15,510 bases of DNA from a virus (lineage: Duplodnaviria; Heunggongvirae; Uroviricota; Caudoviricetes): IMG/VR virus record IMGVR_UViG_2585427727_000013; one strand, given 5' to 3'. Position 1 is the first letter of the stretch. Each line of letters begins with the position of its first letter. Made by a program: the position numbers and the translations under genes. Shown piece by piece: positions 1-15,510 of this stretch. The notes under the pieces are model-generated. The model was not told the origin of the DNA. It saw only the letters and a list, made by a program, of their open reading frames with translations, and made no database searches.

Positions 1-1089
1 AATGAGAAAATCAGCCAGCAGCGCCGGGATTTGTGGAAGGCGGAGAGTCAGTTCGCGGTACTGGAGGAGGCGGCGCAACGTCGCCAGCTGTCTGCACAGG
101 AGAAATCCCTGCTGGCGCATAAAGATGAGACGCTGGAGTACAAACGCCAGCTGGCTGCACTTGGCGACAAGGTTACGTATCAGGAGCGCCTGAACGCGCT
201 GGCGCAGCAGGCGGATAAATTCGCACAGCAGCAACGGGCAAAACGGGCCGCTATTGATGCGAAAAGCCGGGGGCTGACTGACCGGCAGGCAGAACGGGAA
301 GCCACGGAACAGCGCCTGAAGGAACAGTATGGCGATAATCCTCTGGCGCTGAATAACGTCATGTCAGAGCAGAAAAAGACCTGGGCGGCTGAAGACCTGC
401 TTCGCGGGAACTGGATGGCAGGCCTCAGGTCCGGCTGGAGCGAGTGGAAAGAGAGTGCCACGGACAGTATGTCGCAGGTTAAAAGTGCTGCCACGCAGAC
501 CTTTGATGGTATTGCACAGAATATGGCGGCGATGCTGACCGGCAGTGAACAGAACTGGCGCAGCTTCACCCGTTCCGTGCTGTCCATGATGACAGAAATG
601 CTGCTTAAGCAGGCAATGGTGGGGATTGTCGGGAGTATCGGCAGCGCCATTGGCGGGGCTGTTGGTGGCGGCGCATCCGCGTCAGGCGGTACAGCCATTC
701 AGGCCGCTGCGGCGAAATTCCATTTTGCAACCGGAGGATTTACGGGAACCGGCGGCAAATATGAGCCAGCGGGGATTGTTCACCGTGGTGAATTTGTCTT
801 CACGAAGGAGGCAACCAGCCGGATTGGCGTGGGGAATCTTTACCGGCTGATGCGCGGCTATGCCACCGGCGGTTATGTCGGTACACCGGGCAGCATGGCG
901 GACAGTCGGTCGCAGGCGTCCGGGACGTTTGAGCAGAATAACCATGTGGTGATTAACAACGACGGCACGAACGGGCAGATAGGTCCGCATGCTCTGAAGG
1001 CGGTGTATGACATGGCCCGCAAGGGTGCCCGTGATGTAATTCAGACACAGATGCGTGATGGTGGCCTGTTCTCCGGAGGTGGACGATGA
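1..1089 (+). CDS. H: Tail tape measure protein, C-terminal part (lambda gpH-like); 5' end truncated by the window
   Basis: Frame 1 is open from position 1 (the track's 31..1089 ORF merely starts at an in-frame TTG). Gly-rich C-terminus (GGAVGGGASASGG...GGLFSGGGR) and position immediately upstream of M/L fit lambda H. Stop TGA overlaps the M start (ATGA). Confidence 0.85.
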   Translation, partial: NEKISQQRRDLWKAESQFAVLEEAAQRRQLSAQEKSLLAHKDETLEYKRQLAALGDKVTYQERLNALAQQADKFAQQQRAKRAAIDAKSRGLTDRQAEREATEQRLKEQYGDNPLALNNVMSEQKKTWAAEDLLRGNWMAGLRSGWSEWKESATDSMSQVKSAATQTFDGIAQNMAAMLTGSEQNWRSFTRSVLSMMTEMLLKQAMVGIVGSIGSAIGGAVGGGASASGGTAIQAAAAKFHFATGGFTGTGGKYEPAGIVHRGEFVFTKEATSRIGVGNLYRLMRGYATGGYVGTPGSMADSRSQASGTFEQNNHVVINNDGTNGQIGPHALKAVYDMARKGARDVIQTQMRDGGLFSGGGR

Positions 1090-1415
1090 AGACCTTCCGC
1101 TGGAAAGTGAAACCCGGTATGGATGTGGCTTCGGTCCCTTCTGTAAGAAAGGTGCGCTTTGGTGATGGCTATTCTCAGCGAGCGCCTGCCGGGCTGAATG
1201 CCAACCTGAAAACGTACAGCGTGACGCTTTCTGTCCCCCGTGAGGAGGCCACGGTACTGGAGTCGTTTCTGGCTGAGCACGGGGGCTGGAAATCCTTTCT
1301 GTGGACGCCGCCTTATGAGTGGCGGCAGATAAAGGTGACCTGCGCAAAATGGTCGTCGCGGGTCAGTATGCTGCGTGTTGAGTTCAGCGCAGAGTTTGAA
1401 CAGGTGGTGAACTGA
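1086..1415 (+). CDS. M: Minor tail protein M (lambda gpM-like, 109 aa)
   Basis: 109-aa ORF whose sequence (MKTFRWKVKPGMDVASVPSVRKVRFGDGYSQRAP...) matches lambda gpM as recalled from memory. Translationally coupled to H (ATGA overlap) and to L. Confidence 0.93.
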   Translation: MKTFRWKVKPGMDVASVPSVRKVRFGDGYSQRAPAGLNANLKTYSVTLSVPREEATVLESFLAEHGGWKSFLWTPPYEWRQIKVTCAKWSSRVSMLRVEFSAEFEQVVN

Positions 1416-2113
1416 TGCAGGATATCCGGCAGGAAACACTGAATGAATGCACCCGTGCGGAGCAGTCGGCCAGCGTGGTGCTCTGGGAAATCGATCTGAC
1501 AGAGGTCGGTGGAGAACGTTATTTTTTCTGTAATGAGCAGAACGAAAAAGGTGAGCCGGTCACCTGGCAGGGGCGACAGTATCAGCCGTATCCCATTCAG
1601 GGGAGTGGTTTTGAACTGAATGGCAAAGGCACCAGTACGCGCCCCACGCTGACGGTTTCTAACCTGTACGGTATGGTCACCGGGATGGCGGAAGATCTGC
1701 AGAGTCTGGTCGGCGGAACGGTGGTCCGGCGTAAGGTTTACGCCCGTTTTCTGGATGCGGTGAACTTCGTCAACGGAAACAGAGACGCCGATCCGGAGCA
1801 GGAGGTGATCAGCCGCTGGCGCATTGAGCAGTGCAGCGAACTGAGCGCGGTGAGTGCCTCCTTTGTACTGTCCACGCCGACGGAAACGGATGGCGCTGTT
1901 TTTCCGGGACGTATCATGCTGGCCAACACCTGCACCTGGACCTATCGCGGCGATGAGTGCGGTTATAGCGGTCCGGCTGTCGCGGATGAATATGACCAGC
2001 CAACGTCCGATATCACGAAGGATAAATGCAGCAAATGCCTGAGCGGTTGTAAGTTCCGCAATAACGTCGGCAACTTTGGCGGCTTCCTTTCCATTAACAA
2101 ACTTTCGCAGTAA
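1415..2113 (+). CDS. L: Minor tail protein L (lambda gpL-like, 232 aa)
   Basis: 232 aa, same length as lambda gpL. Conserved Cys cluster near the C-terminus (CTWTYRGDECGYSGP...CSKCLSGC) typical of the gpL Fe-S site. Start overlaps the M stop. Confidence 0.93.
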   Translation: MQDIRQETLNECTRAEQSASVVLWEIDLTEVGGERYFFCNEQNEKGEPVTWQGRQYQPYPIQGSGFELNGKGTSTRPTLTVSNLYGMVTGMAEDLQSLVGGTVVRRKVYARFLDAVNFVNGNRDADPEQEVISRWRIEQCSELSAVSASFVLSTPTETDGAVFPGRIMLANTCTWTYRGDECGYSGPAVADEYDQPTSDITKDKCSKCLSGCKFRNNVGNFGGFLSINKLSQ

Positions 2114-2118
2114 ATCCC

Positions 2119-2862
2119 ATGACACAGACAGAATCAGCGATTCTGGCGCACGCCCGGCGATGTGCGCCAGCGGAGTCGTGCGGCTTCGTGGTAAGCACGC
2201 CGGAGGGGGAAAGATATTTCCCCTGCGTGAATATCTCCGGTGAGCCGGAGGATTATTTCCGGATGGCTCCGGAGGACTGGCTGCAGGCAGAAATGCAGGG
2301 TGAGATTGTGGCGCTGGTCCACAGCCACCCCGGTGGTCTGCCCTGGCTGAGTGAGGCTGACCGGCGGCTGCAGGTGCAGAGTGATTTGCCGTGGTGGCTG
2401 GTCTGCCGGGGTGAGATTCATAAGTTCCGCTGTGTGCCGCATCTCACCGGGCGGCGCTTTGAGCACGGGGTGACGGACTGTTACACGCTGTTCCGGGATG
2501 CTTATCATCTGGCGGGGATTGAGATGCCGGATTTTCATCGCGAGGATGACTGGTGGCGTCACGGTCAGAATCTCTATCTGGATAATCTGGAGGCCACAGG
2601 GCTGTATCAGGTGCCGTTGTCAGCGGCGCAGCCGGGCGATGTGCTGCTGTGCTGTTTTGGTTCATCTGTGCCGAATCATGCCGCCATTTACTGTGGTGAC
2701 GGCGAGCTGCTGCACCATATTCCTGAACAACTGAGCAAACGAGAGAGGTATACCGACAAATGGCAGCGACGCACACACTCCCTCTGGCGTCACCGGGCAT
2801 GGCACGCATCTGCCTTTACGGGGATTTACAACGATTTGGCCGCCGCATCGACCTTCGTGTGA
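2119..2862 (+). CDS. K: Tail tip assembly protein K (MPN/JAMM-like N-terminal part plus NlpC/P60-like C-terminal part)
   Basis: 247-aa ORF starting 5 nt after L. Contains a JAMM-type HSHPGG motif and an NlpC/P60-like Cys/His region (GVTDCYTLF...NHAAIYCGDGELLHH). The historical lambda K annotation of 199 aa would correspond to the internal ATG at 2263. The 3' end overlaps I by 103 nt in another frame, as in lambda. Confidence 0.88.
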   Translation: MTQTESAILAHARRCAPAESCGFVVSTPEGERYFPCVNISGEPEDYFRMAPEDWLQAEMQGEIVALVHSHPGGLPWLSEADRRLQVQSDLPWWLVCRGEIHKFRCVPHLTGRRFEHGVTDCYTLFRDAYHLAGIEMPDFHREDDWWRHGQNLYLDNLEATGLYQVPLSAAQPGDVLLCCFGSSVPNHAAIYCGDGELLHHIPEQLSKRERYTDKWQRRTHSLWRHRAWHASAFTGIYNDLAAASTFV

Positions 2863-3431
2863 AAACGGGGGCTGAAGCCATCCGGGCGCTGGCCACACAG
2901 CTCCCTTCGTTTCGTCAGAAACTGAGCGACGGCTGGTATCAGGTACGTATTGCCGGGCAAGATGTCAGCACGTCCGGATTAACGGCGCAGTTACATGAGG
3001 CTCTGCCTGACGGCGCTGTGATTCATATCGTTCCCAGAGTCGCCGGGGCCAAGTCAGGTGGCGTATTCCAGATTGTCCTGGGGGCAGCCGCCATTGCCGG
3101 ATCATTCTTTACTGCCGGAGCCACCCTTGCAGCATGGGGGGCAGCCATTGGGGCCGGTGGTATGACCGGCATTCTGTTTTCTCTCGGTGCCAGTATGGTG
3201 CTCGGCGGTGTGGCGCAGATGCTGGCACCGAAAGCCAGAACTCCCCGCACACAGACAACGGATAACGGTAAGCAGAACACCTATTTCTCCTCACTGGATA
3301 ACATGGTTGCCCAGGGCAATGTTTTGCCTGTTCTGTACGGTGAAATGCGTGTGGGGTCGCGGGTGGTTTCTCAGGAGATCAGCACGGCAGACGAAGGGGA
3401 CGGTGGTCAGGTTGTGGTGATTGGTCGCTGA
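2760..3431 (+). CDS. I: Tail tip assembly protein I (lambda gpI-like, 223 aa)
   Basis: 223 aa with N-terminus MAATHTLPLASPGMARICLYGDLQRF and Gly/Ala-rich hydrophobic middle, matching lambda gpI from memory. Overlaps the 3' end of K. Confidence 0.9.
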   Translation: MAATHTLPLASPGMARICLYGDLQRFGRRIDLRVKTGAEAIRALATQLPSFRQKLSDGWYQVRIAGQDVSTSGLTAQLHEALPDGAVIHIVPRVAGAKSGGVFQIVLGAAAIAGSFFTAGATLAAWGAAIGAGGMTGILFSLGASMVLGGVAQMLAPKARTPRTQTTDNGKQNTYFSSLDNMVAQGNVLPVLYGEMRVGSRVVSQEISTADEGDGGQVVVIGR

Positions 3432-3450
3432 TGCAAAATGTTTTATGTGA

Positions 3451-3473
3451 AACCGCCTGCGGGCGGTTTTGTC
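3451..3473 (+). terminator. GC-rich hairpin plus T-run between I and J; possible attenuator or weak intrinsic terminator
   Basis: aaccgcc-tgcg-ggcggtt followed by tttt, seen directly in the I-J gap. Confidence 0.4.
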
Positions 3474-3491
3474 ATTTATGGAGCGTGAGGA

Positions 3492-6400
3492 ATGGGTAAA
3501 GGAAGCAGTAAGGGGCATACCCCGCGCGAAGCGAAGGACAACCTGAAGTCCACGCAGTTGCTGAGTGTGATCGATGCCATCAGCGAAGGGCCGGTTGAAG
3601 GTCCGGTGGATGGATTAAAAAGCGTGCTGCTGAACAGTACGCCGGTGCTGGACACTGAGGGGAATACCAACATCTCCGGTGTCACGGTGGTGTTCCGTGC
3701 CGGTGAGCAGGAGCAGACACCGCCGGAGGGGTTTGAATCCTCCGGCTCCGAGACGGTGCTGGGTACGGAAGTGAAATATGACACGCCGATCACCCGCACC
3801 ATTACGTCTGCAAACATCGACCGTCTGCGCTTTACCTTCGGTGTACAGGCACTGGTGGAAACCACCTCAAAGGGTGACAGGAATCCGTCGGAAGTCCGTC
3901 TGCTGGTTCAGATACAACGTAACGGTGGCTGGGTGACGGAAAAAGACATCACCATTAAGGGCAAAACCACCTCGCAGTATCTGGCCTCGGTGGTGGTGGG
4001 TAGCCTGCCGCCGCGCCCGTTTAATATCCGGATGCGCAGGATGACGCCGGACAGCACCACAGACCAGCTGCAGAACAAAACGCTCTGGTCGTCATACACC
4101 GAAATCATCGATGTGAAACAGGGCTACCCGAACACGGCACTGGTCGGCGTGCAGGTGGATTCGGAGCAGTTCGGCAGCCAGCAGGTGAGCCGTAATTATC
4201 ATCTGCGCGGGCGCATTCTGCAGGTGCCGTCGAACTATAACCCGCAGACGCGGCAATACAGCGGTATCTGGGACGGAACGTTTAAACCGGCATACAGCAA
4301 CAACATGGCCTGGTGTCTGTGGGATATGCTGACCCATCCGCGCTACGGCATGGGGAAACGTCTTGGTGCGGCGGATGTGGACAAATGGGCGCTGTATGTC
4401 ATCGGCCAGTATTGCGATCAGTCAGTGCCGGATGGCTTTGGTGGCACGGAGCCGCGCATCACCTGTAATGCCTGGCTGACCACACAGCGTAAGGCGTGGG
4501 ATGTTCTCAGTGATTTCTGCTCGGCGATGCGCTGTATGCCGGTATGGAACGGGCAGACGCTGACGTTCGTGCAGGACCGGCCGTCGGATAAGGTGTGGAC
4601 CTATAACCGCAGTAATGTGGTGATGCCGGATGATGGCGCGCCGTTCCGCTACAGTTTCAGCGCCCTGAAGGACCGCCATAATGCCGTTGAGGTGAACTGG
4701 ACTGACCCGGATAACGGCTGGGAAACGGCAACAGAGCTTGTGGAGGACACGCAGGCCATTGCCCGTTATGGTCGTAATGTCACGAAGATGGATGCCTTTG
4801 GCTGTACCAGCCGGGGGCAGGCACACCGCGCCGGGCTGTGGCTGATTAAAACGGAGCTGCTGGAAACGCAGACCGTGGACTTCAGCGTGGGCGCAGAAGG
4901 GCTTCGCCATGTACCGGGCGATGTTATTGAAATCTGTGATGATGACTATGCCGGTATCAGCACCGGTGGTCGTGTGCTGGCGGTGAGCAGCCAGACCCGG
5001 ACGCTGACGCTCGACCGTGAAATCACGCTGCCATCCTCTGGCACCACGCTGATAAGCCTGGTTGACGGAAGTGGCAATCCGGTCAGCGTGCAGGTCCAGT
5101 CCGTCACCGACGGCGTGAAGGTGAAAGTGAGCCGGGTTCCTGACGGCGTTGCAGAATACAGCGTGTGGGGGCTGAAGTTGCCGACGTTGCGCCAGCGCCT
5201 GTTCCGCTGTGTGAGTATCCGTGAGAACGACGACGGCACGTATGCCATCACCGCCGTGCAGCATGTACCGGAAAAAGAAGCCATCGTGGATAACGGGGCG
5301 CACTTTGACGGCGACCAGAGTGGCACGGTGAATGGTGTCACGCCGCCAGCGGTGCAGCACCTGGCCGCAGAAGTCACTGCAGACAGCGGGGAATATCAGG
5401 TGCTGGCGCGATGGGACACACCGAAGGTGGTGAAGGGCGTGAGCTTCCTGCTCCGTCTGACCGTAACAGCGGACGACGGCAGTGAGCTGCTGGTCAGCAC
5501 GGCCCGGACGACGGAAACCACATACCGCTTCAGGCAACTGGCGCTGGGGCGTTACACGCTGACGGTCCGGGCGGTAAATGCGTGGGGGCAGCAGGGCGAT
5601 CCGGCATCGGTATCGTTCCGGATTGCGGCACCGGCAGCGCCTGTCACTATTGAACTGATACCAGGGTATTTTCAGATAACAGCGGTCCCGAAACTGGCTG
5701 TATATGACCCGACGGTGCAGTTTGAGTTCTGGTTCTCGGAAAAGCGGATTATCGATATCAGGCAGGTTGAAACCAGCGCGCGTTATCTTGGTACGGCGCT
5801 GTACTGGATAGCCGCCAGTAGCAATATTAAGCCGGGTTATGATTATTACTTTTATATCCGCAGCGTGAACACCGTTGGTAAATCGGCATTTGTGGAGGCC
5901 GTTGGTCGGGCGAGCGATGATGCGGAAGGTTATCTGAATTTTTATAAAGGGTTGATCAATAAAACGCATCTCGGCAAGGAACTGCTGGAAAACTTTGAGC
6001 TGACGGAAGATAACGCCAGCAAACTGGAGGAGTTTTCGAAAGAGTGGAAGGACGCCAACGATAAATGGAATGCCATGTGGGGCGTCAAAATTGAGCAGAC
6101 CAAAGACGGCAAACATTATGTCGCGGGGCTTGGCCTCAGCATGGAGGATACGGAGGAAGGCAAACTGAGCCAGTTCCTGGTTGCCGCTAACCGTATCGCG
6201 TTTATTGACCCGGCAAACGGGAATGAAACGCCGATGTTTGTGGCGCAGGGCAACCAGATATTCATGAACGACGTGTTCCTGAAGCGCCTGACGGCCCCCA
6301 CCATTACCAGCGGCGGTAATCCTCCGGCATTTTCCCTGACACCGGACGGGCGGCTGACGGCGAAAAATGCCGATATCAGCGGTAACGTGAATGCGAACTC

Positions 6401-6887
6401 CGGGACGCTCAACAACGTCACGATTAACGAGAACTGCCGGGTTCTGGGAAAACTGTCCGCGAACCAGATTGAAGGCGATCTCGTTAAAACAGTGGGCAAA
6501 GCTTTCCCCCGTGACTCCCGGGCACCGGAGCGGTGGCCATCAGGGACCATTACCGTCAGGGTTTATGACGATCAGCCGTTTGACCGGCAAATTGTTATTC
6601 CGGCTGTGGCATTCAGTGGCGCTAAGCATGAGAGAGAGCATACTGATATTTACTCCTCATGCCGTCTGATAGTGCGGAAAAACGGTGCTGAAATTTATAA
6701 CCGTACCGCGCTGGATAATACGCTGATTTACAGTGGCGTTATTGATATGCCTGCCGGTCACGGTCACATGACACTGGAGTTTTCGGTGTCAGCATGGCTG
6801 GTAAATGGCTGGTATCCCACAGCAAGTATCAGCGATTTGCTGGTTGTTGTGATGAAGAAAGCCACTGCAGGCATCACGATTAGCTGA
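3492..6887 (+). CDS. J: Tail tip central fibre / host specificity protein J (lambda gpJ-like, 1131 aa)
   Basis: 1131-aa ORF (lambda J is 1132 aa) in the conserved position after I. Good SD (tgaggaatg). N-terminus [34 protein letters not shown] is lambda-J-like. Confidence 0.95.
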
Positions 6888-6905
6888 ATTTTATAACCCA
6901 GATAC

Positions 6906-6932
6906 GGGCACCAGAAATGGTGCCTTTTTTAT
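6906..6932 (+). terminator. Rho-independent terminator after J
   Basis: Perfect hairpin ggcacca-gaaa-tggtgcc followed by tttttt. Confidence 0.7.
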
Positions 6933-6954
6933 TGCAGAAAAGCGAGAGGTAATT

Positions 6955-7554
6955 ATGCGTAAATTATGTGCTGTTATTCTGTCCGCAGTAGTCTGGCTGG
7001 TTGCCGCTGGTACGCCAGCGAGCGCAGCAGAGCATCAGTCCACACTAAGCGCCGGGTATCTTCAGACTCATACTGATATGCCAGGCAGTGATGACCTGAA
7101 GGGCATTAACGTGAAATACCGTTATGAATTTACGGACACGCTGGGGCTGGTGACGTCATTCAGTTATGCCAATGCCAAAGATGAGCAAAAAACGCATTAC
7201 AGCGATACCCGCTGGCATGAAGATTCAGTGCGTAACCGCTGGTTCAGCATGATGGCGGGGCCATCTGTACGCGTGAATGAATGGTTCAGTGCTTATGCGA
7301 TGGCAGGTGTGGCTTACAGCCGTGTTTCGACGTTCTCCGGGGATTATCTCCGCGTAACTGACAACAAGGGGAAAACGCACGATGTGCTGACCGGAAGTGA
7401 TGACGATCGCCACAGCAACACGTCTCTGGCGTGGGGAGCTGGCGTGCAGTTTAACCCGACCGAATCCGTGGCCATTGATATTGCTTATGAAGGCTCCGGC
7501 AGTGGCGACTGGCGCACTGACGGTTTCATCGTGGGTGTCGGTTATAAGTTCTGA
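6955..7554 (+). CDS. lom: Lom-like outer-membrane beta-barrel protein (Ail/Lom/PagC family)
   Basis: 199 aa with signal peptide (MRKLCAVILSAVVWLVAAGTPASAAEH), alternating amphipathic beta-strand pattern and C-terminal GVGYKF. Lambda moron position between J and stf, bracketed by terminators. Confidence 0.9.
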   Translation: MRKLCAVILSAVVWLVAAGTPASAAEHQSTLSAGYLQTHTDMPGSDDLKGINVKYRYEFTDTLGLVTSFSYANAKDEQKTHYSDTRWHEDSVRNRWFSMMAGPSVRVNEWFSAYAMAGVAYSRVSTFSGDYLRVTDNKGKTHDVLTGSDDDRHSNTSLAWGAGVQFNPTESVAIDIAYEGSGSGDWRTDGFIVGVGYKF

Positions 7555-7580
7555 TTAGCCAGGTAACACAGTGTTATGAC

Positions 7581-7608
7581 AGCCCGCCGGTTCAGGCGGG
7601 CTTTTTTG
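7581..7608 (+). terminator. Rho-independent terminator after lom
   Basis: Hairpin gcccgcc-ggttca-ggcgggc followed by tttttt. Confidence 0.7.
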
Positions 7609-7618
7609 TGGAGTGGAT

Positions 7619-9997
7619 ATGGCAGCAGTAAAAATCTCAGGTGTGCTGAAAGATGGTGCGGGAAAACCAATACAGAACTGCACTATTCAACTGAAGGCAA
7701 AGCGTAACAGCACCACGGTACTGGTGAACACGGTGGCCTCTGAAAATCCGGATGAAGCCGGGCGTTACAGCATGGACGTTGAGTATGGTCAGTACAGCGT
7801 CATCCTGTGGATTGAGGGTTCTCAGCCATCACATGTTGGGACCATTACCGTCTATGAAGGTTCCAGTCCGGGGACGCTGAATGATTTTCTCGGTGCCATG
7901 ACGGAAGATGATGTCATGCCGGAGGCATTGCGCCGTTTTCAGGCAATGGTGGAAGAAGCGGCACGCAACGCCGAAGCCGCCTCTCAGAGCGCAGCGGCGG
8001 CAAAGAAATCCGAAACTGCAGCGGCATCATCGAAGAACGCGGCGAAAACCTCAGAAACGAATGCAGCTAATAGTGCACAGGCGGCAGCGACCTCAAAGAC
8101 TGCATCGGCAAACTCCGCGACAGCAGCCAAAAAATCAGAAACCAACGCGAAAAATAGCGAGACAGCCGCAAAGACGAGCGAAACCAACGCAAAGTCCAGC
8201 CAGACGGCAGCGAAAACCAGCGAAACGAATACCAAAGCCAGTGAAACTGCGGCGAAAAACAGCCAGGATGCAGCGGCCCAAAGCGAGAGTGCCGCAGCTG
8301 GTTCTGCAAGTGCGGCGGCTTCTTCTGCCACTGCATCAGCCAACAGTCAAAAAGCTGCAAAAACCAGCGAAACTAACGCAAAGTCCAGCCAGACGGCAGC
8401 GAAGACCAGCGAAACGAATGCCAAAGCCAGCGAAACTGCGGCGAAAAACAGTCAGGATGCAGCAGCCCAAAGCGAGAGTGCTGCAGCTGGTTCTGCAAGC
8501 GCGGCGGCTGCTTCTGCCACTGCATCAGCCAACAGTCAAAAAGCAGCAAAAACCAGTGAAACCAATGCAAAGACAAGCGAGACTGCAGCGGCGAACTCGG
8601 CGAAAGCATCGGCAGCAAGCCAGACAGCAGCTAAAGCAAGTGAAGACGCAGCCAGAGAGTATGCAAGTCAGGCAGCAGAGCCGTATAAATATGTCTTACA
8701 GCCACTGCCTGATGTGTGGATACCATTTAACGATTCACTGGATATGATTACGGGCTTTTCGCCATCTTATAAAAAGATTGTTATTGGTGACGACGAAATA
8801 ACGATGCCTGGTGACAAGGTGGTTAAGTTTAAACGCGCATCAAAAGCAACTTACATTAATAAATCTGGTGTGCTGACAGAGGCTACCATTGACGAGCCAC
8901 GATTTGAACGTGATGGCCTGCTTATTGAGGGGCAAAGAACGAACTTCTTCCCGAACAGTACAGACCCTTCGAAGTGGAATAAGTCAACTTCACTGGACGT
9001 TACAGAAACAGGCACAGATAGTTTCGGTTTTAATTATGGCCGGTTTGTCGTACAGGATTCGATTGTTGGTACAAGTAAAGCGCATACCATTATCGGACTG
9101 TATTCGAGTACCGGAGGGGTTGATACTTCAGGGGACGAAAAGTATGTAACTATATCCTGTCGGGTAAAAAGTGAAGTTGATAATATCGACGTTCGTATTT
9201 TATTTGAACATTATGATGGGGAGGTAAGGACATCAATAGGAACAGCAAGCCTGAACCTTACCACCCGCATAATTAGCAAGACAGGTCAGACAAGCCGTGT
9301 TACAGCAAGGTCTGTTAAGGATGATGCAACTGGCTGGATATTTTTTGAGGCTACATTAAAAGCAGATACAACAGAAAATACGGTTGGTGGTTTCGTCCAG
9401 TATTCTCCGGATACAGGTCAGATGGTGGCATCAGGGGATTGTCTCGATGTAACCACTCCCCAGATTGAGGCTGGTACAGGCGCATCATCTTTTATTGTTA
9501 CGGGGGCTGCACCGGTAACGCGGGCAAGCGATATAGTTACAGTCCCAATTAAGAATAATCTTTATAATCTACCTTTTACGGTTCTTTGTGAGGTACATAA
9601 GAACTGGTATAAAACGCCAAATGCAGCACCGCGTGTTTTTGATACCGGCGGTCATCAAACCGGAGCGGCTATTATTCTTGGCTTCGGTTCTTCAGCAGAT
9701 TACGACGGATTTCCTTATTGCGATATTGGTGGGGCTAACAGGCGGATAAACGAAAATGCATCGCTTGAAAAAATGGTTATGGGGATGCGTGTAAAGTCAG
9801 ATCAGTCTACATGCGCAGTAAGTAACGGGCGTATATCCAGCGAAACAAAAACCACATGGTCCTGTATTCAGAACTCCGCAATTATCCGTATTGGAGGCCA
9901 GACTACAGCCGGTTTACGCCATTTATTTGGTCATGTCAGGAATTTCAGAATATGGCACAAGGCATTGACTGATGCTCAGGTGGGGGAGTTAATCTAA
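7619..9997 (+). CDS. stf: Side tail fibre protein, mosaic: lambda-Stf-like N-terminus, Ala/Ser/Thr/Lys-rich repeat shaft, and a non-lambda AT-rich C-terminal module ending in a LamG/concanavalin-like motif
   Basis: The track ORF starts at GTG 7613, but the ATG at 7619 has an SD (ggag, 5-nt spacer) and gives MAAVKISGVLKDG..., matching the lambda Stf N-terminus. Shaft carries SETNAK-type short repeats and a 63-aa tandem duplication. C-terminus ...RIGGQTTAGLRHLFGHVRNFRIWHKALTDAQVGELI resembles the end of LamG-type domains. Confidence 0.85.
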   Translation: MAAVKISGVLKDGAGKPIQNCTIQLKAKRNSTTVLVNTVASENPDEAGRYSMDVEYGQYSVILWIEGSQPSHVGTITVYEGSSPGTLNDFLGAMTEDDVMPEALRRFQAMVEEAARNAEAASQSAAAAKKSETAAASSKNAAKTSETNAANSAQAAATSKTASANSATAAKKSETNAKNSETAAKTSETNAKSSQTAAKTSETNTKASETAAKNSQDAAAQSESAAAGSASAAASSATASANSQKAAKTSETNAKSSQTAAKTSETNAKASETAAKNSQDAAAQSESAAAGSASAAAASATASANSQKAAKTSETNAKTSETAAANSAKASAASQTAAKASEDAAREYASQAAEPYKYVLQPLPDVWIPFNDSLDMITGFSPSYKKIVIGDDEITMPGDKVVKFKRASKATYINKSGVLTEATIDEPRFERDGLLIEGQRTNFFPNSTDPSKWNKSTSLDVTETGTDSFGFNYGRFVVQDSIVGTSKAHTIIGLYSSTGGVDTSGDEKYVTISCRVKSEVDNIDVRILFEHYDGEVRTSIGTASLNLTTRIISKTGQTSRVTARSVKDDATGWIFFEATLKADTTENTVGGFVQYSPDTGQMVASGDCLDVTTPQIEAGTGASSFIVTGAAPVTRASDIVTVPIKNNLYNLPFTVLCEVHKNWYKTPNAAPRVFDTGGHQTGAAIILGFGSSADYDGFPYCDIGGANRRINENASLEKMVMGMRVKSDQSTCAVSNGRISSETKTTWSCIQNSAIIRIGGQTTAGLRHLFGHVRNFRIWHKALTDAQVGELI
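8189..8566 (+). repeat. In-frame tandem duplication inside stf: 2 x 189 bp (63 aa), near-identical
   Basis: Unit starting gcaaagtccagccagacggcagcg occurs at 8189 and again at 8378 with only a few substitutions. It explains the spurious Arg/Lys/Gln-rich ORFs in other frames. Confidence 0.9.
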
Positions 9998-10278
9998 TGA
10001 AAGATTTAACACTCAAATTTGTCGACAGGGCCGACTTTTCGGCCTTTATGGAGAGCATTGGCTATTATGATGACGAGTCGATGCAGGATGATATTCTTAT
10101 TGACGTGATAGGTAATGTGTACAAAGAAACCGGAGAACTTACTGAAGATGGCGAGCCGGTATGTGTTAAGGAGGACGGATATTTTGTAAGCGTGCGCATC
10201 ATTAATGATGCAAAAAAATCGTCAATATTCGATAAATACGCGATTGTTGTTGAGCATCAACTTCGTGGCTGGATGTGA
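9997..10278 (+). CDS. Hypothetical acidic 93-aa protein, translationally coupled to stf
   Basis: Start ATG overlaps the stf stop (TAATG). AT-rich. No motif I can recognise. Confidence 0.5.
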   Translation: MKDLTLKFVDRADFSAFMESIGYYDDESMQDDILIDVIGNVYKETGELTEDGEPVCVKEDGYFVSVRIINDAKKSSIFDKYAIVVEHQLRGWM

Positions 10279-10287
10279 GGGAGACAA

Positions 10288-10992
10288 ATGGCTACATCGA
10301 CAGTAATTCCTGATGACATCAAAACGCTAAAGGGAGATGTCAGTAAAGCCAAGGAAGATATTTCCTCAATTAACGGAAAAGTATCAACGCTTCAGACTGA
10401 TATGACCAGTGCAAAGCAGGATATCAGCTCCAGATACACAAAAACTGAAGTTGATAATAAGCTGAAAAACAAACTGGAAGTGAACGCTCTGGAAAGCGGT
10501 CGTTATGGTGGAGATTTTTACCCGCTGACTGGCCGTGAAGCGTTTTATTTGTGGGGATTGGGCACGACTACAGCGGCGGCAAACCTTTATCTTAATCCTG
10601 ACTCCGCAATTTCGTCTGTACTGCGGTCAACATCGTCTATCCGCTATAAAGATTCAGTAGAGACAATAGATTCAGAGCACGCCGATCTCATTTTCAGGAT
10701 GCGCCCTGTGTGGTACAGGTCGCAATGCGAAAATGACAGGCGTGACTGGGGATTCTACGGATTGATTGCCGAGGAAGTAGGAGAAATTGCCCCTCAGTTT
10801 GTACACTGGCGACCAGCTAACGAGAATGATGCTCCTGAAGCTATTTCCAGCAATGGCCTTGTTGCCGAAGGTGTAATGTACGAACGTCTGGTTGTTCCAC
10901 TGATTCACCATATCCAGAAACTGACTGAAAGAGTTGATGAACTTGAGTCAGAATTAAAGCTGTTATCAACTTCCCGAAGCGATATCGGATAA
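10288..10992 (+). CDS. Short fibre-like protein with a C-terminal peptidase-S74 intramolecular chaperone domain (234 aa)
   Basis: SD gagggag upstream. N-terminal heptad-like repeats (DIKTLKGDVSKAKEDISSINGKVSTLQTDMTSAKQDISS). C-terminal half matches the S74 pattern as I recall it: S-S-I-R-Y-K at the expected autocleavage site, then RPVWYR, GLIAEEVGEIAPQFV, and a terminal coiled coil (IQKLTERVDELESELKLL). Confidence 0.6.
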   Translation: MATSTVIPDDIKTLKGDVSKAKEDISSINGKVSTLQTDMTSAKQDISSRYTKTEVDNKLKNKLEVNALESGRYGGDFYPLTGREAFYLWGLGTTTAAANLYLNPDSAISSVLRSTSSIRYKDSVETIDSEHADLIFRMRPVWYRSQCENDRRDWGFYGLIAEEVGEIAPQFVHWRPANENDAPEAISSNGLVAEGVMYERLVVPLIHHIQKLTERVDELESELKLLSTSRSDIG

Positions 10993-11002
10993 AGGAGGAG
11001 TA

Positions 11003-11296
11003 ATGGATATAAGCCCCTTACTTCATGCACTTTGTGCTGTGGCTGCGCAGACACTGGTTGGTCTTTTTACCGGAAACTGGGCTTACGGAGCGATAGCCGG
11101 TTGTGCGTTCTTCATTGCGCGTGAACACACCCAGGCAGAATATCGCTGGATTGAAATGTTCGGGCATGGCAAGCGAATGAATATGCCGTGGTGGGGCGGT
11201 TTTGATCCGCGCGCGTGGGATGTGGCAAGCCTGATGGATTTTGCTGTGCCGGTGGTGGCGTGTCTGCTGGTCTGGCTGTTGGTTAATCGTGGGTGA
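11003..11296 (+). CDS. Hypothetical small membrane protein (97 aa, hydrophobic N- and C-terminal segments)
   Basis: Strong SD (aggagg). Hydrophobic stretches LLHALCAVAAQTLVGLFTGNWAYGAIAGCAFFIA and FAVPVVACLLVWLLV. Third gene of the compact cassette after stf. Confidence 0.5.
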   Translation: MDISPLLHALCAVAAQTLVGLFTGNWAYGAIAGCAFFIAREHTQAEYRWIEMFGHGKRMNMPWWGGFDPRAWDVASLMDFAVPVVACLLVWLLVNRG

Positions 11297-11306
11297 AAAA
11301 AGGTGA

Positions 11307-11435
11307 GCTGTATATGCAACGGAGGAAGAAACCTCGTTGCGGGAAGCCTGGAAGAAGTATCGGGTGTTGCTGAACCGTGTTGATACATCAACTGCACCTG
11401 ATATTGAGCGGCCTGTGAACCCTGTCAGGGAGTAA
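11307..11435 (+). pseudogene. tfa: 3' remnant of a tail fibre assembly gene (tfa): last ~40 codons only, no start
   Basis: Frame translates ...[39 protein letters not shown], matching the lambda Tfa C-terminus (...[24 protein letters not shown]...) from memory. An in-frame stop lies immediately upstream at 11304-11306. Confidence 0.6.
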
Positions 11436-11486
11436 TCATTGGGATTATGCCGCAGCACGTCTTAAGCAAGAACGTGCTGCGGTTGG
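11316..11486 (+). repeat. Direct repeat copy 1 (~170 bp): tfa 3' end plus downstream hairpin
   Basis: About 90% identical to 12365-12536 by eye. Confidence 0.85.
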
Positions 11487-11498
11487 ATGCTATTTTTT
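11450..11498 (+). terminator. Perfect 11-bp-stem hairpin with downstream T-run after the tfa remnant; possible terminator for the stf operon
   Basis: ccgcagcacgt-cttaagcaaga-acgtgctgcgg (11450-11482), then tttttt at 11493-11498. A degenerate copy lies inside repeat 2 near 12507-12536. Confidence 0.45.
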
Positions 11499-12158
11499 CC
11501 CTGAAGCGGAAAACATTACTACAGTACCTTGAACCTTGGTTTTAACATTCTCGAAATGCTCTGAGAGTATATGTGTTAAGCCTTCTTCGGAATCTTTTGT
11601 GTTTGAAAAGATGCCTTTCTGATTGTAAATGCGCATCAGTTTTTGACCGAAGCTATTGTGCACAACTCCATCGCCAAGAATTGTGGCTCCGTATAGAGTT
11701 CCATCGTCAGTTAAGGCCTGCGCCGCATTGCGTATTACACAGCTTTTTGTAGATATATTTCCAGGCAGGCAGTGAAGAAGGTAAAACATGGAAATGGAAT
11801 CAAATTGACCATGTAACGTCGCGGGATAAGGTTCAAAAACATCATGGCTAATTTTATGTTTAATTTTTGATTCCCCAGCCCTTGTAGATGCCGCGTTCAG
11901 GCTAGCTTCGTTCAAATCCATTAAAGATATCAGACTACTCTCAGGTACGTGAGTAAGGTAAAACCCAGTTCCAACACCAATATCCAGATGGTTGTTACCT
12001 AAATGTTCCAGAAAGTGTGGAAGAAGGTGTTCCTTTGTAGGACATCCCCATGCAAGCCGATTTGATACTCCCAAAACCCACCAGTCATAAAGCTTTAGGG
12101 TAAGTGGTGTGTAAATTTTAGCCCCATCATCTGTGTTTTTTTTCATTAATTTCACCAT
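11490..12158 (-). CDS. Class I SAM-dependent methyltransferase (moron), substrate unknown
   Basis: 222-aa ORF on the minus strand with SAM-binding motif I (LDIGVGTGFY) and an acidic post-motif region. Low GC relative to tail genes. An SD-supported alternative start is the fifth codon (ATG at 12146). Confidence 0.7.
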   Translation of the reverse strand: MVKLMKKNTDDGAKIYTPLTLKLYDWWVLGVSNRLAWGCPTKEHLLPHFLEHLGNNHLDIGVGTGFYLTHVPESSLISLMDLNEASLNAASTRAGESKIKHKISHDVFEPYPATLHGQFDSISMFYLLHCLPGNISTKSCVIRNAAQALTDDGTLYGATILGDGVVHNSFGQKLMRIYNQKGIFSNTKDSEEGLTHILSEHFENVKTKVQGTVVMFSASGKK

Positions 12159-12214
12159 GTTATAGTTTTATTTGTGAATTAAATCAATTACGGCGATGAA
12201 TTACAAGGGGTTAA

Positions 12215-12484
12215 ATGCTGCCGCAGCATAGCGATATTGAAATAGCCTGGTATGCTTCGATACAGCAGGAGCCGAATGGCTGGAAGACCGTCACCACACA
12301 GTTCTACATCCAGGAATTCAGTGAGCATATTGTGCCACTTCAGGATGCTGTAGATCTGGAGATCGCAACGGAGGAAGAAAACTCGTTGCTGGAAGCCTAG
12401 AGGAAGTATCGGGTGTTGCTGAACCGTGTTGATACATCAACTGCACCTGATATTGAGTGGCCTGCAAATCCTGTCAGGGAGTAA
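12215..12484 (+). pseudogene. tfa: 5'-truncated tfa fragment with an in-frame TAG (TGG to TAG) at 12398-12400
   Basis: Track ORF 12215..12400 ends ...SEHIVPLQDAVDLEIATEEENSLLEA*. The same frame continues [27 protein letters not shown] to 12484, matching the lambda Tfa C-terminus with W replaced by a stop. No Tfa N-terminal region is present. Confidence 0.65.
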
Positions 12485-12536
12485 TCATTGGGATTATGCC
12501 GCAGACACGTCGTATGCAGGAACGTGCTGCGGTTAG
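12365..12536 (+). repeat. Direct repeat copy 2 (~170 bp): tfa 3' end plus downstream imperfect hairpin
   Basis: Aligns with 11316-11486 base for base with scattered substitutions. Confidence 0.85.
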
Positions 12537-12600
12537 TTTGTGAGCTTTCGATAGTGCGAGTATTGAATGATTTCCAGCCGTTACCGATTTTACGTGCTAA

Positions 12601-12849
12601 TTAGTGAACAAACCACTCGTCAGCAGACTCCCAGGTATCTTTCAGAGTTTCCTGAACAAAAGTTTTAGCTGAATCTTTATCGGCGGTGCGCGTAACAGAA
12701 AGGCCATCGTTGCTGGTGGCTTTTACGATCACCTCTACATCGTCATAACGTTTACTGATGCGTCGGGTTAATTCTTCCTTTAACGCATCCACAGCACCGG
12801 TTGGCATTTTAGTCATTTTTTCTTTGGCTATGCAGATTTCAATACGCAT
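12601..12849 (-). CDS. dinI: DinI-like DNA-damage-inducible protein (82 aa)
   Basis: [11 protein letters not shown]...[11 protein letters not shown] has the DinI-family pattern (MRIE..IAK...GA.DAL..EL.RRI...TWESAD.WFV) as I recall it for E. coli DinI. SD agaggga. Two LexA boxes immediately upstream. Confidence 0.8.
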
Positions 12850-12862
12850 AAAAGTCCCTCTA

Positions 12863-12910
12863 TACTGTGTTTGTATACAGTGTTATTTTTAACTGTATGG
12901 ATAAACAGTG
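12863..12910. promoter_or_regulatory. Two tandem LexA (SOS) boxes in the dinI promoter region
   Basis: Box 1 at 12863-12882: taCTGTgtttgtatACAGtg. Box 2 at 12891-12910: aaCTGTatggataaACAGtg. Both fit CTGT-N8-ACAG. They lie 14-61 bp upstream of the dinI start codon and directly abut the integrase stop. Confidence 0.7.
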
Positions 12911-14008
12911 TCAAGAGGTCTTATTTCTGCTCTTTTGGAGCTCTTCAAAACGATTATGTAAAGATTTCGGATACAGTTCGGTATATACCTGCCATAGCAC
13001 GTTTAATGAACGATGTCCTGTAACTTGGGCGACTTCCTCAATACTAAAACCAGCCTCAAATAAGCGACTTGCCCCTTCTCTACGCAAATCATGGTATCGC
13101 AGATCTTTAATACCTAATTTGCTTCTTACCCTCTGAAATCCCGCAGTAACAGAAGTGCTGTTATATGGAAAAATGAATTCCGATTTTTGGGGCTGTCGTT
13201 GGACGATATCCCAGGCTTCCCCAAGCAAGGCTACTTTCATGTGGTTGCCTTCCTTTTTGCGTGGATCTTTCCTGTCTCTTACGAGTATAGATTTTTGTTC
13301 CTGGTCGAGATCTTCCCATCGTAACCGGCATACTTCTCCGATTCGCATACAGGACCACACAGAAAATTTGAGGATATCAACGAACGGAATTTTTGAGCAT
13401 TTATGAGTAGATCGTTGTTGAAGGCCTTCAATGAGCATGTCCAGTTCATCAGATGCTGGTCTACGATTACGACGGTTTGATTTACCAATCAAACCAAGTT
13501 TAAGTAGATATGGACGAGCGCTTTTCGCCGGGTTTGATGTGTAATTAATTCCGTATACAGGTTTAGCCGCATCCAGAACACTGCCAAGATAACTAACATC
13601 GTGGCTGACTGTTGCTGGACCTGCACCAGCGTTGTTTCTTAGCCTACAATGTTCAATTACGTCATTTTCTGTCAGTTCGGATAGTTTGATCGCGGAGATG
13701 TCACTATCCATAAGCAGTTCCAGCACATATCTTTTAGTACGACCTGCTTTACCTCCGGCATTTGAGTCATTTAAATATTTGTGTAGTAAGTCACGGACTG
13801 TAAGTCCGTCAACTGCATTTGATGATGGAATGCCATATAGATCTAATTCCATTACTTTCTGTGTACCCCATGTTTTGGCATGGGCATGTTTAGGGAATGT
13901 TTTGCTTTCCCTGTAAGTGATAACACCTTTTTCTTTGATAATCACATTACAGCGATAGCGTGGTGTGCCATCGGATTTTAGTCGTTTCTCTATGTTATAG
14001 TACGCCAT
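12911..14008 (-). CDS. int: Tyrosine-type site-specific integrase (dusA-associated integrase type)
   Basis: 365 aa with a C-terminal catalytic region carrying an HxxR box (RYHDLRREGASRLF) and ...VTGHRSLNVLWQVYTELY with the candidate nucleophile Tyr. 5' end is 88 bp from the dusA start, divergently oriented. Confidence 0.9.
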   Translation of the reverse strand: MAYYNIEKRLKSDGTPRYRCNVIIKEKGVITYRESKTFPKHAHAKTWGTQKVMELDLYGIPSSNAVDGLTVRDLLHKYLNDSNAGGKAGRTKRYVLELLMDSDISAIKLSELTENDVIEHCRLRNNAGAGPATVSHDVSYLGSVLDAAKPVYGINYTSNPAKSARPYLLKLGLIGKSNRRNRRPASDELDMLIEGLQQRSTHKCSKIPFVDILKFSVWSCMRIGEVCRLRWEDLDQEQKSILVRDRKDPRKKEGNHMKVALLGEAWDIVQRQPQKSEFIFPYNSTSVTAGFQRVRSKLGIKDLRYHDLRREGASRLFEAGFSIEEVAQVTGHRSLNVLWQVYTELYPKSLHNRFEELQKSRNKTS

Positions 14009-14028
14009 TACACGACCTCGTTATTTCG

Positions 14029-14063
14029 GGTTCCCATAAATCGTGGGAACCTGTGCGGGAACC
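14029..14063. promoter_or_regulatory. Inverted repeat ggttccca-N7-tgggaacc plus a third gggaacc half-site in the int-dusA intergenic region; candidate operator or recombinase-binding site
   Basis: Perfect 8-bp inverted repeat at 14029-14036 and 14044-14051; direct gggaacc repeat at 14057-14063. Lies in the divergent promoter region upstream of int and dusA. Confidence 0.35.
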
Positions 14064-14096
14064 TAACGCGAGAAAAATAGCCTGAAATGTTCAAAA

Positions 14097-15134
14097 ATGC
14101 ACGATAATCCTGAAACACAGAAAACTAATCAAACCAGCGTGATGCCTGAGAAAACTGACGCTTACGGGAGCTCTCGGTTTAGCATTGCTCCTATGCTCGA
14201 CTGGACGGACAGACATTGCCGCTATTTCTTGCGTCTGCTTTCCCGCAATACGTTGCTGTATACCGAAATGGTGACCACAGGGGCGATTATTCACGGTAAA
14301 GGTGATTATCTGGCGTACAGTGAAGAAGAACATCCGGTAGCGTTGCAACTCGGCGGTAGCGATCCGGCGGCGCTGGCGCAGTGTGCGAAGCTGGCAGAAG
14401 CGCGCGGATATGATGAGATCAACCTGAATGTCGGCTGCCCGTCTGACCGGGTGCAGAACGGCATGTTTGGGGCGTGTCTGATGGGTAATGCGCAGCTGGT
14501 TGCCGACTGCGTGAAAGCGATGCGCGATGTGGTGTCGATTCCGGTGACGGTGAAAACGCGTATTGGAATCGATGACCAGGACAGCTATGAATTTCTCTGC
14601 GATTTCATCAACACCGTTTCCGGCAAAGGCGAGTGTGAGATGTTCATCATCCACGCACGTAAAGCCTGGCTTTCTGGGTTAAGCCCGAAAGAAAACCGTG
14701 AAATCCCGCCGCTCGATTATCCGCGTGTGTATCAACTGAAGCGTGACTTTCCGCATCTGACGATGTCGATTAACGGTGGCATCAAGTCGCTGGAAGAGGC
14801 TAAAGCGCATTTGCAACATATGGATGGCGTGATGGTCGGGCGCGAAGCGTATCAGAATCCAGGCATTCTGGCGGCGGTAGACCGAGAGATCTTTGGTTCT
14901 TCGGATACCGATGCCGATCCGGTGGCGGTGGTGCGTGCCATGTATCCGTACATTGAGCGTGAACTCAGCCAGGGGACGTATCTCGGCCATATTACCCGGC
15001 ATATGCTGGGCTTGTTCCAGGGTATTCCTGGCGCGCGGCAGTGGCGGCGTTATTTAAGTGAAAATGCCCATAAAGCGGGTGCTGACATTAACGTGCTGGA
15101 ACACGCGCTCAAACTGGTGGCAGATAAGCGTTAA
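14097..15134 (+). CDS. dusA: tRNA-dihydrouridine synthase A
   Basis: 345-aa Dus-family protein with the catalytic-Cys motif ([21 protein letters not shown]). Followed by pspG, as in the E. coli chromosome. Confidence 0.9.
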
Positions 15135-15267: not shown

Positions 15268-15510
15268 ATGCTGGAACTACTTTTTGTGATTGGCTTTTTT
15301 GTCATGCTGATGGTCACCGGCGTTTCGTTGCTGGGTATTATCGCTGCGCTGGTTGTGGCGACGGCCATTATGTTCCTCGGCGGTATGCTGGCATTGATGA
15401 TTAAGTTGCTGCCGTGGTTACTACTGGCGATTGCGGTGGTGTGGGTTATTAAGGCGATTAAAGCACCAAAAGTGCCTAAATATCAGCGTTATGACCGCTG
15501 GCGTTACTAA
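15268..15510 (+). CDS. pspG: Phage shock protein G (80 aa, small inner-membrane protein)
   Basis: MLELLFVIGFFVMLMVTGVSLLGIIAALVVATAIMFLGGMLALMIKLLPWLLLAIAVVWVIKAIKAPK...: two hydrophobic helices, located downstream of dusA. The track's 150-aa ORF from 15058 is an unsupported 5' extension; the ATG at 15268 follows the sigma54 promoter. Confidence 0.85.
   Translation: MLELLFVIGFFVMLMVTGVSLLGIIAALVVATAIMFLGGMLALMIKLLPWLLLAIAVVWVIKAIKAPKVPKYQRYDRWRY

Follow-up and report, generated by a model that had tools for sequence, protein, structure and literature searches.

Integration at the 5' end of dusA has been described for genomic islands, mobilisable elements and phages. In the founding paper on the dusA-associated integrases (DAIs), the phage hits include mEp460, AH2, BcepMigl and DC1, E. 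coli lysogens are among the hosts, and PCR and sequencing demonstrated both the excision of these elements and the element origin of the dusA 5' end (Farrugia et al. 2015, PMC4482086). When C. rodentium was lysogenised by phage 1720a-02, the phage integrated 100 bp into dusA at a 7-base core that is perfectly conserved, the dusA' that it carries was joined in frame to the host gene, and attP was regenerated in vivo (Balasubramanian et al. 2019, PMC6328086). Furthermore, dusA-specific elements bring a new promoter and re-establish the reading frame, and their RDF was shown to be RdfN, a PrtN-domain protein encoded across attP from int (Durand et al. 2021, PMC8409611). Earlier publications already cover the target, the integrase family, the replacement 5' end and the excision factor.

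The locus analysed here lies in a window of 15,510 nt, i.e. the whole stretch of viral DNA under analysis. Its arrangement is already known, well described and common, as it consists of a near-identical published phage module at a published site. Indeed, an int-dusA junction (at least 80% of region 12800-14500) was found in 733 of the 5426 complete E. coli genomes (~13%), and the dusA part of this region was matched in every complete E. coli genome. Judged from its sequence, the locus displays every characteristic of DAI and dusA-specific elements that could be tested, the two that concern the far end being tested in close relatives only. Positions 1-14192 of the window almost certainly represent the right arm of a lambdoid, mEp460-like prophage, inserted inside the tRNA-modification gene dusA by a DAI, with replacement of the 5' end of the gene, and the E. 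coli chromosome would extend from position 14193 onward.

Comparison with described phages and elements

In mEp460 and its relatives (mEp460_4F5, PhiR40_1, PhiR47_1, PhiR55_1, phiSTEC1575-Stx2k, Lys8385Vzw and SKA5), the block 12601-14200 is 97.6-99.3% identical to that of the window, and these phages share with it the attP core, the dusA' surrogate and the GGGAACC repeats. In the codons of dusA', mEp460 and the window differ at a few points (e.g. Asp/Gly, Gly/Trp), and the rest of the genome is mosaic in this group. The int module of the Stx2d phage 1720a-02 (phi-stx2dact) is 94.6% identical to that of the window over the same block. As in the window, its short conserved core lies inside a 21-bp motif and int adjoins the junction; moreover, window positions 14187-14205 match the published C. 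rodentium attB (PMC6328086) at 18 of 19 positions. This phage carries stx2d, and its integration and excision are experimental, whereas the window is known from sequence alone. No toxin gene was found in the part of the prophage available in the window.

The dusA islands (PMC4482086) resemble the window in having a divergent integrase at the dusA 5' end, an element-supplied replacement 5' end and semi-conserved direct repeats over the codons for (V/I)-A-P-M-(L/M)-D-W-T. Indeed, 21 of the 28 positions in window 14179-14206 match the attR that was defined experimentally for the dusA island of A. baumannii D1279779, over the same codons (PMC4482086). However, the prototype DAIs of A. baumannii and Pseudomonas are only distantly related to the integrase of the window, the nearest listed non-enteric phages being those of Burkholderia (~34%), and the replacement 5' end of the window is clearly homologous to the host's own (79%), whereas in the prototype islands it is an unrelated sequence. 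IMEVchUSA3 and the other Vibrio dusA-specific elements share with the phage of the window the same target, the supply of a new promoter and frame, and a PrtN-domain RDF across attP, but they are islands mobilised by plasmids, with an RDF controlled by AcaCD (PMC8409611), while the window derives from a lambdoid phage; in the relatives of this phage, the RDF gene lies at the end of the early-left operon, unlike in the AcaCD-controlled Vibrio elements. The lambda Int/attP system likewise includes a tyrosine integrase, a short overlap core, repeated words in both attP arms and a separate excision factor. In contrast to lambda, the int gene of the window points away from attP and is on the opposite side of it from the RDF gene, so that integration separates the two; in addition, the phage targets the inside of a coding gene, which it repairs, and its RDF is of the PrtN type and not lambda Xis.

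Gene content and integrase of the window

The ORF map and family scans revealed a lambda-like tail region, with homologues of gpM, L, K, I and J, Lom and tail-fibre genes. After this tail region, the window encodes a SAM-dependent methyltransferase (11490-12158, minus strand), a DinI-like protein (12601-12849, minus strand; PF06183, E 1e-19) and, directly upstream of the latter gene, a tyrosine integrase of the dusA-associated (DAI, Rci-like) family (12911-14008, minus strand; 365 aa; PF00589, E 7e-21). The DinI-like gene travels with the int-attP module in the block 12601-14200 (dinI-int-attP). The dusA ORF (14097-15134, plus strand) is uninterrupted and encodes 345 aa that score 560.8 bits against NCBIfam NF008774 (cut-off 269) and 581 bits against TIGR00742, with a Pfam Dus match of E 8e-105; it is followed by the chromosomal gene pspG (15268-15510). 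An earlier note on this DNA had placed the integrase start 88 bp from the dusA start and divergent from it, which was reproduced, as the two start codons are exactly 88 nt apart (spacer 14009-14096), and the DusA N-terminus quoted there agrees with the translation of the 14097-15134 ORF. ARAGORN found zero tRNA or tmRNA genes in the whole window, which therefore offers no alternative tRNA target.

The PF00589 match covers integrase residues 189-346, in which the candidate catalytic residues R222, H306-x-x-R309, H332 and Y342 are all present, as assigned from motif context and alignment with XerA. The protein shares 98.4% amino acid identity with the Int of mEp460 and 99.5-99.7% with those of mEp460_4F5 and PhiR40_1. 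The existence of a dusA-associated integrase family, which the earlier note had pointed to, is borne out by the literature (PMC4482086), where mEp460 itself is named. More distant homologs were found in Yersinia phage YeP3 (68% identity), in Salinivibrio phage SMHB1 (55.9%), in Vibrio and Pseudoalteromonas phages (~54-55%) and in Burkholderia phages DC1, BcepMigl and AH2 (33.8-34.5% over 93-96% of the length, E 1e-55 to 1e-58). Its tyrosine-recombinase residues, its relatedness to the listed DAIs and its adjacency to the dusA 5' end assign the predicted integrase to the DAI family. In the N-terminal 196 residues, a Pfam search with E up to 10 returned nothing for residues 1-60 and a weak, sub-threshold match to PF24624 (Int_N) for residues 71-165; a single-sequence AlphaFold2 model of the integrase (mean pLDDT 41, pTM 0.24) was unusable as a check for an N-terminal arm-binding domain.

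It could be argued that the prophage is a decayed remnant, and that the junction is a fossil at which int and att no longer recombine. The left ~30 kb of the prophage lies outside the window, and the closest complete relative, carried by E. coli strain AST240, has an IS66-family insertion in a tail-fibre gene and several pseudogenes. Nevertheless, the int gene of the window is full length, with the candidate catalytic R-H-R-H-Y set present, the core and the arm repeats are preserved, the tail-fibre ORF (7613-9997) runs without the break seen in AST240, and int-attP modules 97.9-99.3% identical to this one are found in the isolated phages PhiR40_1, PhiR47_1, PhiR55_1 and mEp460. A loss of recombination at this junction is thus considered improbable.

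Junction, att core and phage-supplied 5' end of dusA

Four sequences were compared at the junction: the window, the empty site of E. coli K-12, the other prophage end in strain AST240 and the free phage attP of mEp460. In K-12 MG1655, yjbL and yjbM precede dusA and no integrase is present, so that this genome provides the empty site. Since the window does not reach the other prophage end and differs from every complete genome compared (the best match among complete E. coli genomes being 99.3%, with AST20), attL was taken from AST240, one of several complete E. coli genomes that are 100% identical to the window over 12800-14500.

Between the window and K-12, nucleotides 1-96 of dusA show 20 mismatches (79.2% nucleotide identity; 22 of the 32 amino acids identical), whereas nucleotides 97-1038 (window 14193-15134, core included) show 24 mismatches (97.5% identity), all of them synonymous. 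The contrast between these first 96 nt and the remaining 942 nt is far beyond chance (Fisher p 9e-11). The first difference from K-12 past nucleotide 96 is at nucleotide 255, leaving 158 nt without mismatch after the breakpoint. Upstream of the dusA ATG, similarity to the native K-12 leader holds for ~30-35 nt and then fades. The check proposed in the earlier note, an alignment with dusA of a prophage-free strain, therefore places the beginning of near-identity at window position 14193, with ~79% identity upstream of it in the coding part. The result named there as speaking against integration at this point, an identity to prophage-free dusA that continues unbroken across start codon and promoter, was not seen with K-12, so that the initial interpretation stands.

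The AST240 prophage is ~48.5 kb long, and at its far end there is a CDS of 105 nt with the annotation 'tRNA-dihydrouridine synthase, missing C-terminus'. This fragment is identical to nucleotides 1-104 of K-12 dusA, ends in ATGCTCGA and then diverges. Thus the duplicated dusA 5' fragment that was to be sought at the other prophage end does exist in a close lysogen, as a displaced native copy of 104 nt. The reciprocal attP is held by the free phages mEp460 and mEp460_4F5, in which the left arm of the window up to 14192 is followed by ATGCTCGA and by the right arm of attL. In three-way and five-way alignments, ATGCTCGA (8 bp; window 14193-14200, plus strand; dusA nucleotides 97-104, codons Met33-Leu34-Asp35) is the sole block identical in attB, attL, attR and attP, and strand exchange must consequently fall within it. 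The att core had been expected somewhere within 14009-14300, and the prophage boundary is now placed to 8 bp. Direct repeats in the dusA 5' coding region, semi-conserved, flank the prophage; the attR copy (14174-14209, plus strand) and the attL copy of AST240 are identical at 29 of 36 positions. In attP of the mEp460 type, the core region also contains a 5-bp inverted repeat with a 7-bp spacer (TCCTA-TGCTCGA-TAGGA), which was rejected as a core-type repeat, its equivalents in YeP3 and C5a being only ~3/6 symmetric.

According to another explanation, the integrase would be a fixed chromosomal neighbour of dusA and the odd 5' end an ordinary allelic variant. The phage-type 5' end does still resemble the native one (79% of nucleotides, 22 of 32 amino acids) and the frame is kept. 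However, yjbM and no integrase is found upstream of K-12 dusA, the int-dusA arrangement is restricted to 733 of 5426 genomes, the divergence steps sharply at one position, an identical left arm is present in free phage genomes, and in lysogens the displaced native fragment is still found at the other end of the prophage; taken together, these observations leave the allelic explanation with practically no chance of being correct. An intergenic junction upstream of the dusA start codon, leaving the whole ORF host-derived, has nothing in its favour except that insertion between genes is frequent among prophages, and is already refuted by the four-way att alignment, in which the attL fragment corresponds to nucleotides 1-104 of K-12 dusA while window nucleotides 1-96 match the phage attP arm.

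With the prophage inserted inside dusA, everything from the int start to position 14192 is, as read from these alignments, phage DNA, including the spacer of 88 nt as well as the start codon and the first 32 codons of dusA. The suspicion that the first DusA codons might be element-derived was well founded: codons 1-32 match the attP arm of the free phages and not K-12. The phage-borne dusA 5' surrogate (14064-14192, plus strand) comprises codons 1-32 preceded by a leader of ~33 nt, and represents a diverged homologue of the native E. coli 5' end; its left limit at ~14064 is approximate, as it corresponds to the point where similarity to K-12 decays. This surrogate is identical or near-identical in the free phages mEp460, mEp460_4F5 and 1720a-02. 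The rest of the gene (14201-15134, plus strand) is host-derived according to the K-12 alignment. The hybrid dusA ORF in the ORF list (14097-15134, plus strand) is thus composed of 32 phage, 3 core and 310 host codons, in frame.

Two possible DusA start codons are present, ATG at 14097 and an in-frame ATG at 14142, both in the phage-derived part. According to Farrugia et al. (PMC4482086), the affected N-terminal segment of DusA includes strand beta-1 of the TIM barrel and is replaced by island-supplied sequence. The T. thermophilus Dus of known structure aligns with the hybrid protein only from residue 25, which indicates that the replaced segment is mostly a poorly conserved N-terminal extension and that the phage share of the conserved Dus fold is only ~8 residues (RFSIAP, with one Val-to-Ile change). 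The hybrid DusA is probably active, and published work on related elements suggests that the hybrid gene is expressed. A strict scan of 13800-14300 for sigma-70 promoters of dusA or int gave none, and a relaxed scan gave candidates with 7-8 of 12 matches. These relaxed candidates, which were not relied on as promoters, are TTGATT-17-GATTAT at 14132-14104 on the strand of int and, on that of dusA, a -10-like AAAAAT that overlaps the ATG at 14097.

In this strain, and in about one in seven complete E. coli genomes, the annotated N-terminus of DusA should be read as phage-encoded. The placement of the junction is of use for annotation, prophage delimitation and PCR design, and brings no new principle.

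Proposed mechanism and possible arm-type sites

In the mechanism proposed here, the dusA-associated tyrosine integrase would recombine attP with a site ~100 nt inside dusA, the exchange taking place within ATGCTCGA. Integration would shift the native dusA promoter, the start codon and the first 32 codons to the far (attL) end of the prophage, and the phage's own diverged copy of this segment, located beside attP, would rebuild an in-frame, full-length dusA at attR. For its expression, the hybrid gene would presumably rely on signals that the phage provides within or close to the 88-bp spacer, which it has in common with the divergent int gene. Excision would need a PrtN/RdfN-type factor, which is encoded across attP in relatives; proteins matching PF11112 are indeed found across attP from int in AST240 (L003 13249-13521) and in mEp460 (gp25). 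In the circular phage, exo, rdf, attP, int and dinI follow one another on one strand, an order such that integration cuts int off from the early-left operon carrying the RDF gene. As a result of this separation, int is presumably transcribed from a promoter of its own, located in the phage-derived segment beside dusA.

The spacer between int and dusA' also contains a cluster of GGGAACC words (14029-14063), with one inverted copy (14029-14035) and two direct copies (14045-14051 and 14057-14063) at 12-bp spacing. Three of the four GGGAACC copies in the 15.5-kb window are thereby located within 35 bp. On the other attP arm, 44-61 bp past the core, a similar pair is present, GTGGGAGCCTATTGGGAACC, of the form GGGAGCC-N4-GGGAACC (mEp460; attL of AST240). 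The cluster and the other-arm pair are proposed to be arm-type (P-arm) integrase sites. The words may be read by a putative N-terminal arm-binding domain of the integrase; furthermore, the cluster sits where the divergent int promoter and the phage-supplied dusA promoter must lie, so that occupancy by Int could also set the expression of int and dusA. Both proposals are tentative and somewhat doubtful as yet; if they hold true, DusA dosage in the lysogen would be a phage-controlled trait. Arm sites are unmentioned in the founding DAI paper (PMC4482086), as is the term 'arm-type' in the Vibrio paper (PMC8409611), this literature comparison covering these two papers. One modest addition to what has been published thus consists of these possible arm-type sites, which overlap the shared promoter region and are the sole part that might justify a small experiment.

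Similar repeats were found in other phages. The GGGAACC cluster is kept in phage 1720a-02. Yersinia phage YeP3 has the same layout, with the conserved ATGCTCGA core and its own dusA' (MHENN...RFSVAPMLD), and its repeated word is GGGGTGCTG. Analogous repeats of other words are present in Pseudoalteromonas phage C5a (GGGTGACT) and in Burkholderia phage DC1 (TGGTAC). Across these relatives, the repeated words appear to change with the integrase, which is the pattern expected of arm-type sites co-evolving with an arm-binding domain.

Repeated words around the att core

Both attP arms around the dusA att core (14193-14200) carry repeated words of 7-9 nt, which are located at 14029-14063 in the window, at 3142-3162 in the phage mEp460 stretch (L004) and at about 1245-1480 in that of Yersinia phage YeP3 (L007). 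The repeated word varies with the integrase lineage, namely GGGAACC in the window, GGGGTGCTG in YeP3, GGGTGACT in Pseudoalteromonas phage C5a and TGGTAC in Burkholderia phage DC1. These words look like arm-type sites, a putative assignment; such sites are not described in the founding paper on dusA-associated integrases (DAI) (Farrugia et al. 2015, PMC4482086). A word pair of the YeP3 type, GGGGTGCTG-TAT-GGGGTGCTG, also precedes the integrase of Klebsiella phage Kp4885-1 (L008 1-190), which is 52% identical to the window integrase. No dusA-like 5' segment was found in the 140 nt that remain before the Kp4885-1 record stops; the target of this phage may be other than dusA, or the record may end at the att site.

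The integrase module and the DusA start codon

In Escherichia coli AST217 (NZ_AP043630.1), the tail region is 98% identical to the window up to position 12914 and divergent from 12915, a point that adjoins the int stop codon (12911-12913). Since identity ends there, the int-attP module seems to be a cassette that can be exchanged, its mosaic boundary lying at the 3' end of int; dinI (12601-12849), however, goes with the tail side in AST217. Furthermore, a search with the block 12601-14200 matched window positions 13367-13888 (query positions 767-1288) in phage cdtI (NC_009514.1 23116-23652). Phage cdtI carries an int fragment that covers amino acids 41-219 with 95.5% identity; it is broken into three pieces, and the annotation calls these hypothetical proteins. 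This fragment is apparently what is left of a DAI integrase after decay, and cdtI presumably uses a different integrase.

Two in-frame ATG codons, at 14097 (Met1) and 14142 (Met16), are candidate starts for DusA, both within the phage-derived segment. The sole -10-like hexamer detected on the dusA strand in a relaxed promoter scan overlaps the first ATG, which would weakly favour a shorter DusA starting at 14142.

Cargo genes and tail-fibre region

At the left prophage end of E. coli AST240, a lysogen relative, the gene for a SocA/Panacea-domain protein (PF13274, E 7e-20; L003 12166-12747) comes directly after attL on the prophage side and separates the att site from the excision factor (RDF) gene; it could possibly be a toxin-antitoxin or defence cargo gene at the prophage edge. 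The equivalent position in mEp460 is occupied by an unannotated ORF of 177 amino acids. In the window, a class I SAM-dependent methyltransferase (11490-12158, minus strand; PF08242, PF13489, phrog_2132), encoded between the tail-fibre genes and dinI on the opposite strand, is a moron-like cargo gene. The tail-fibre ORF (794 amino acids, 7613-9997) is uninterrupted in the window, whereas the AST240 prophage, near-identical in other respects, has this ORF split by the IS66-family element ISEc47 (L001 12271-17198).
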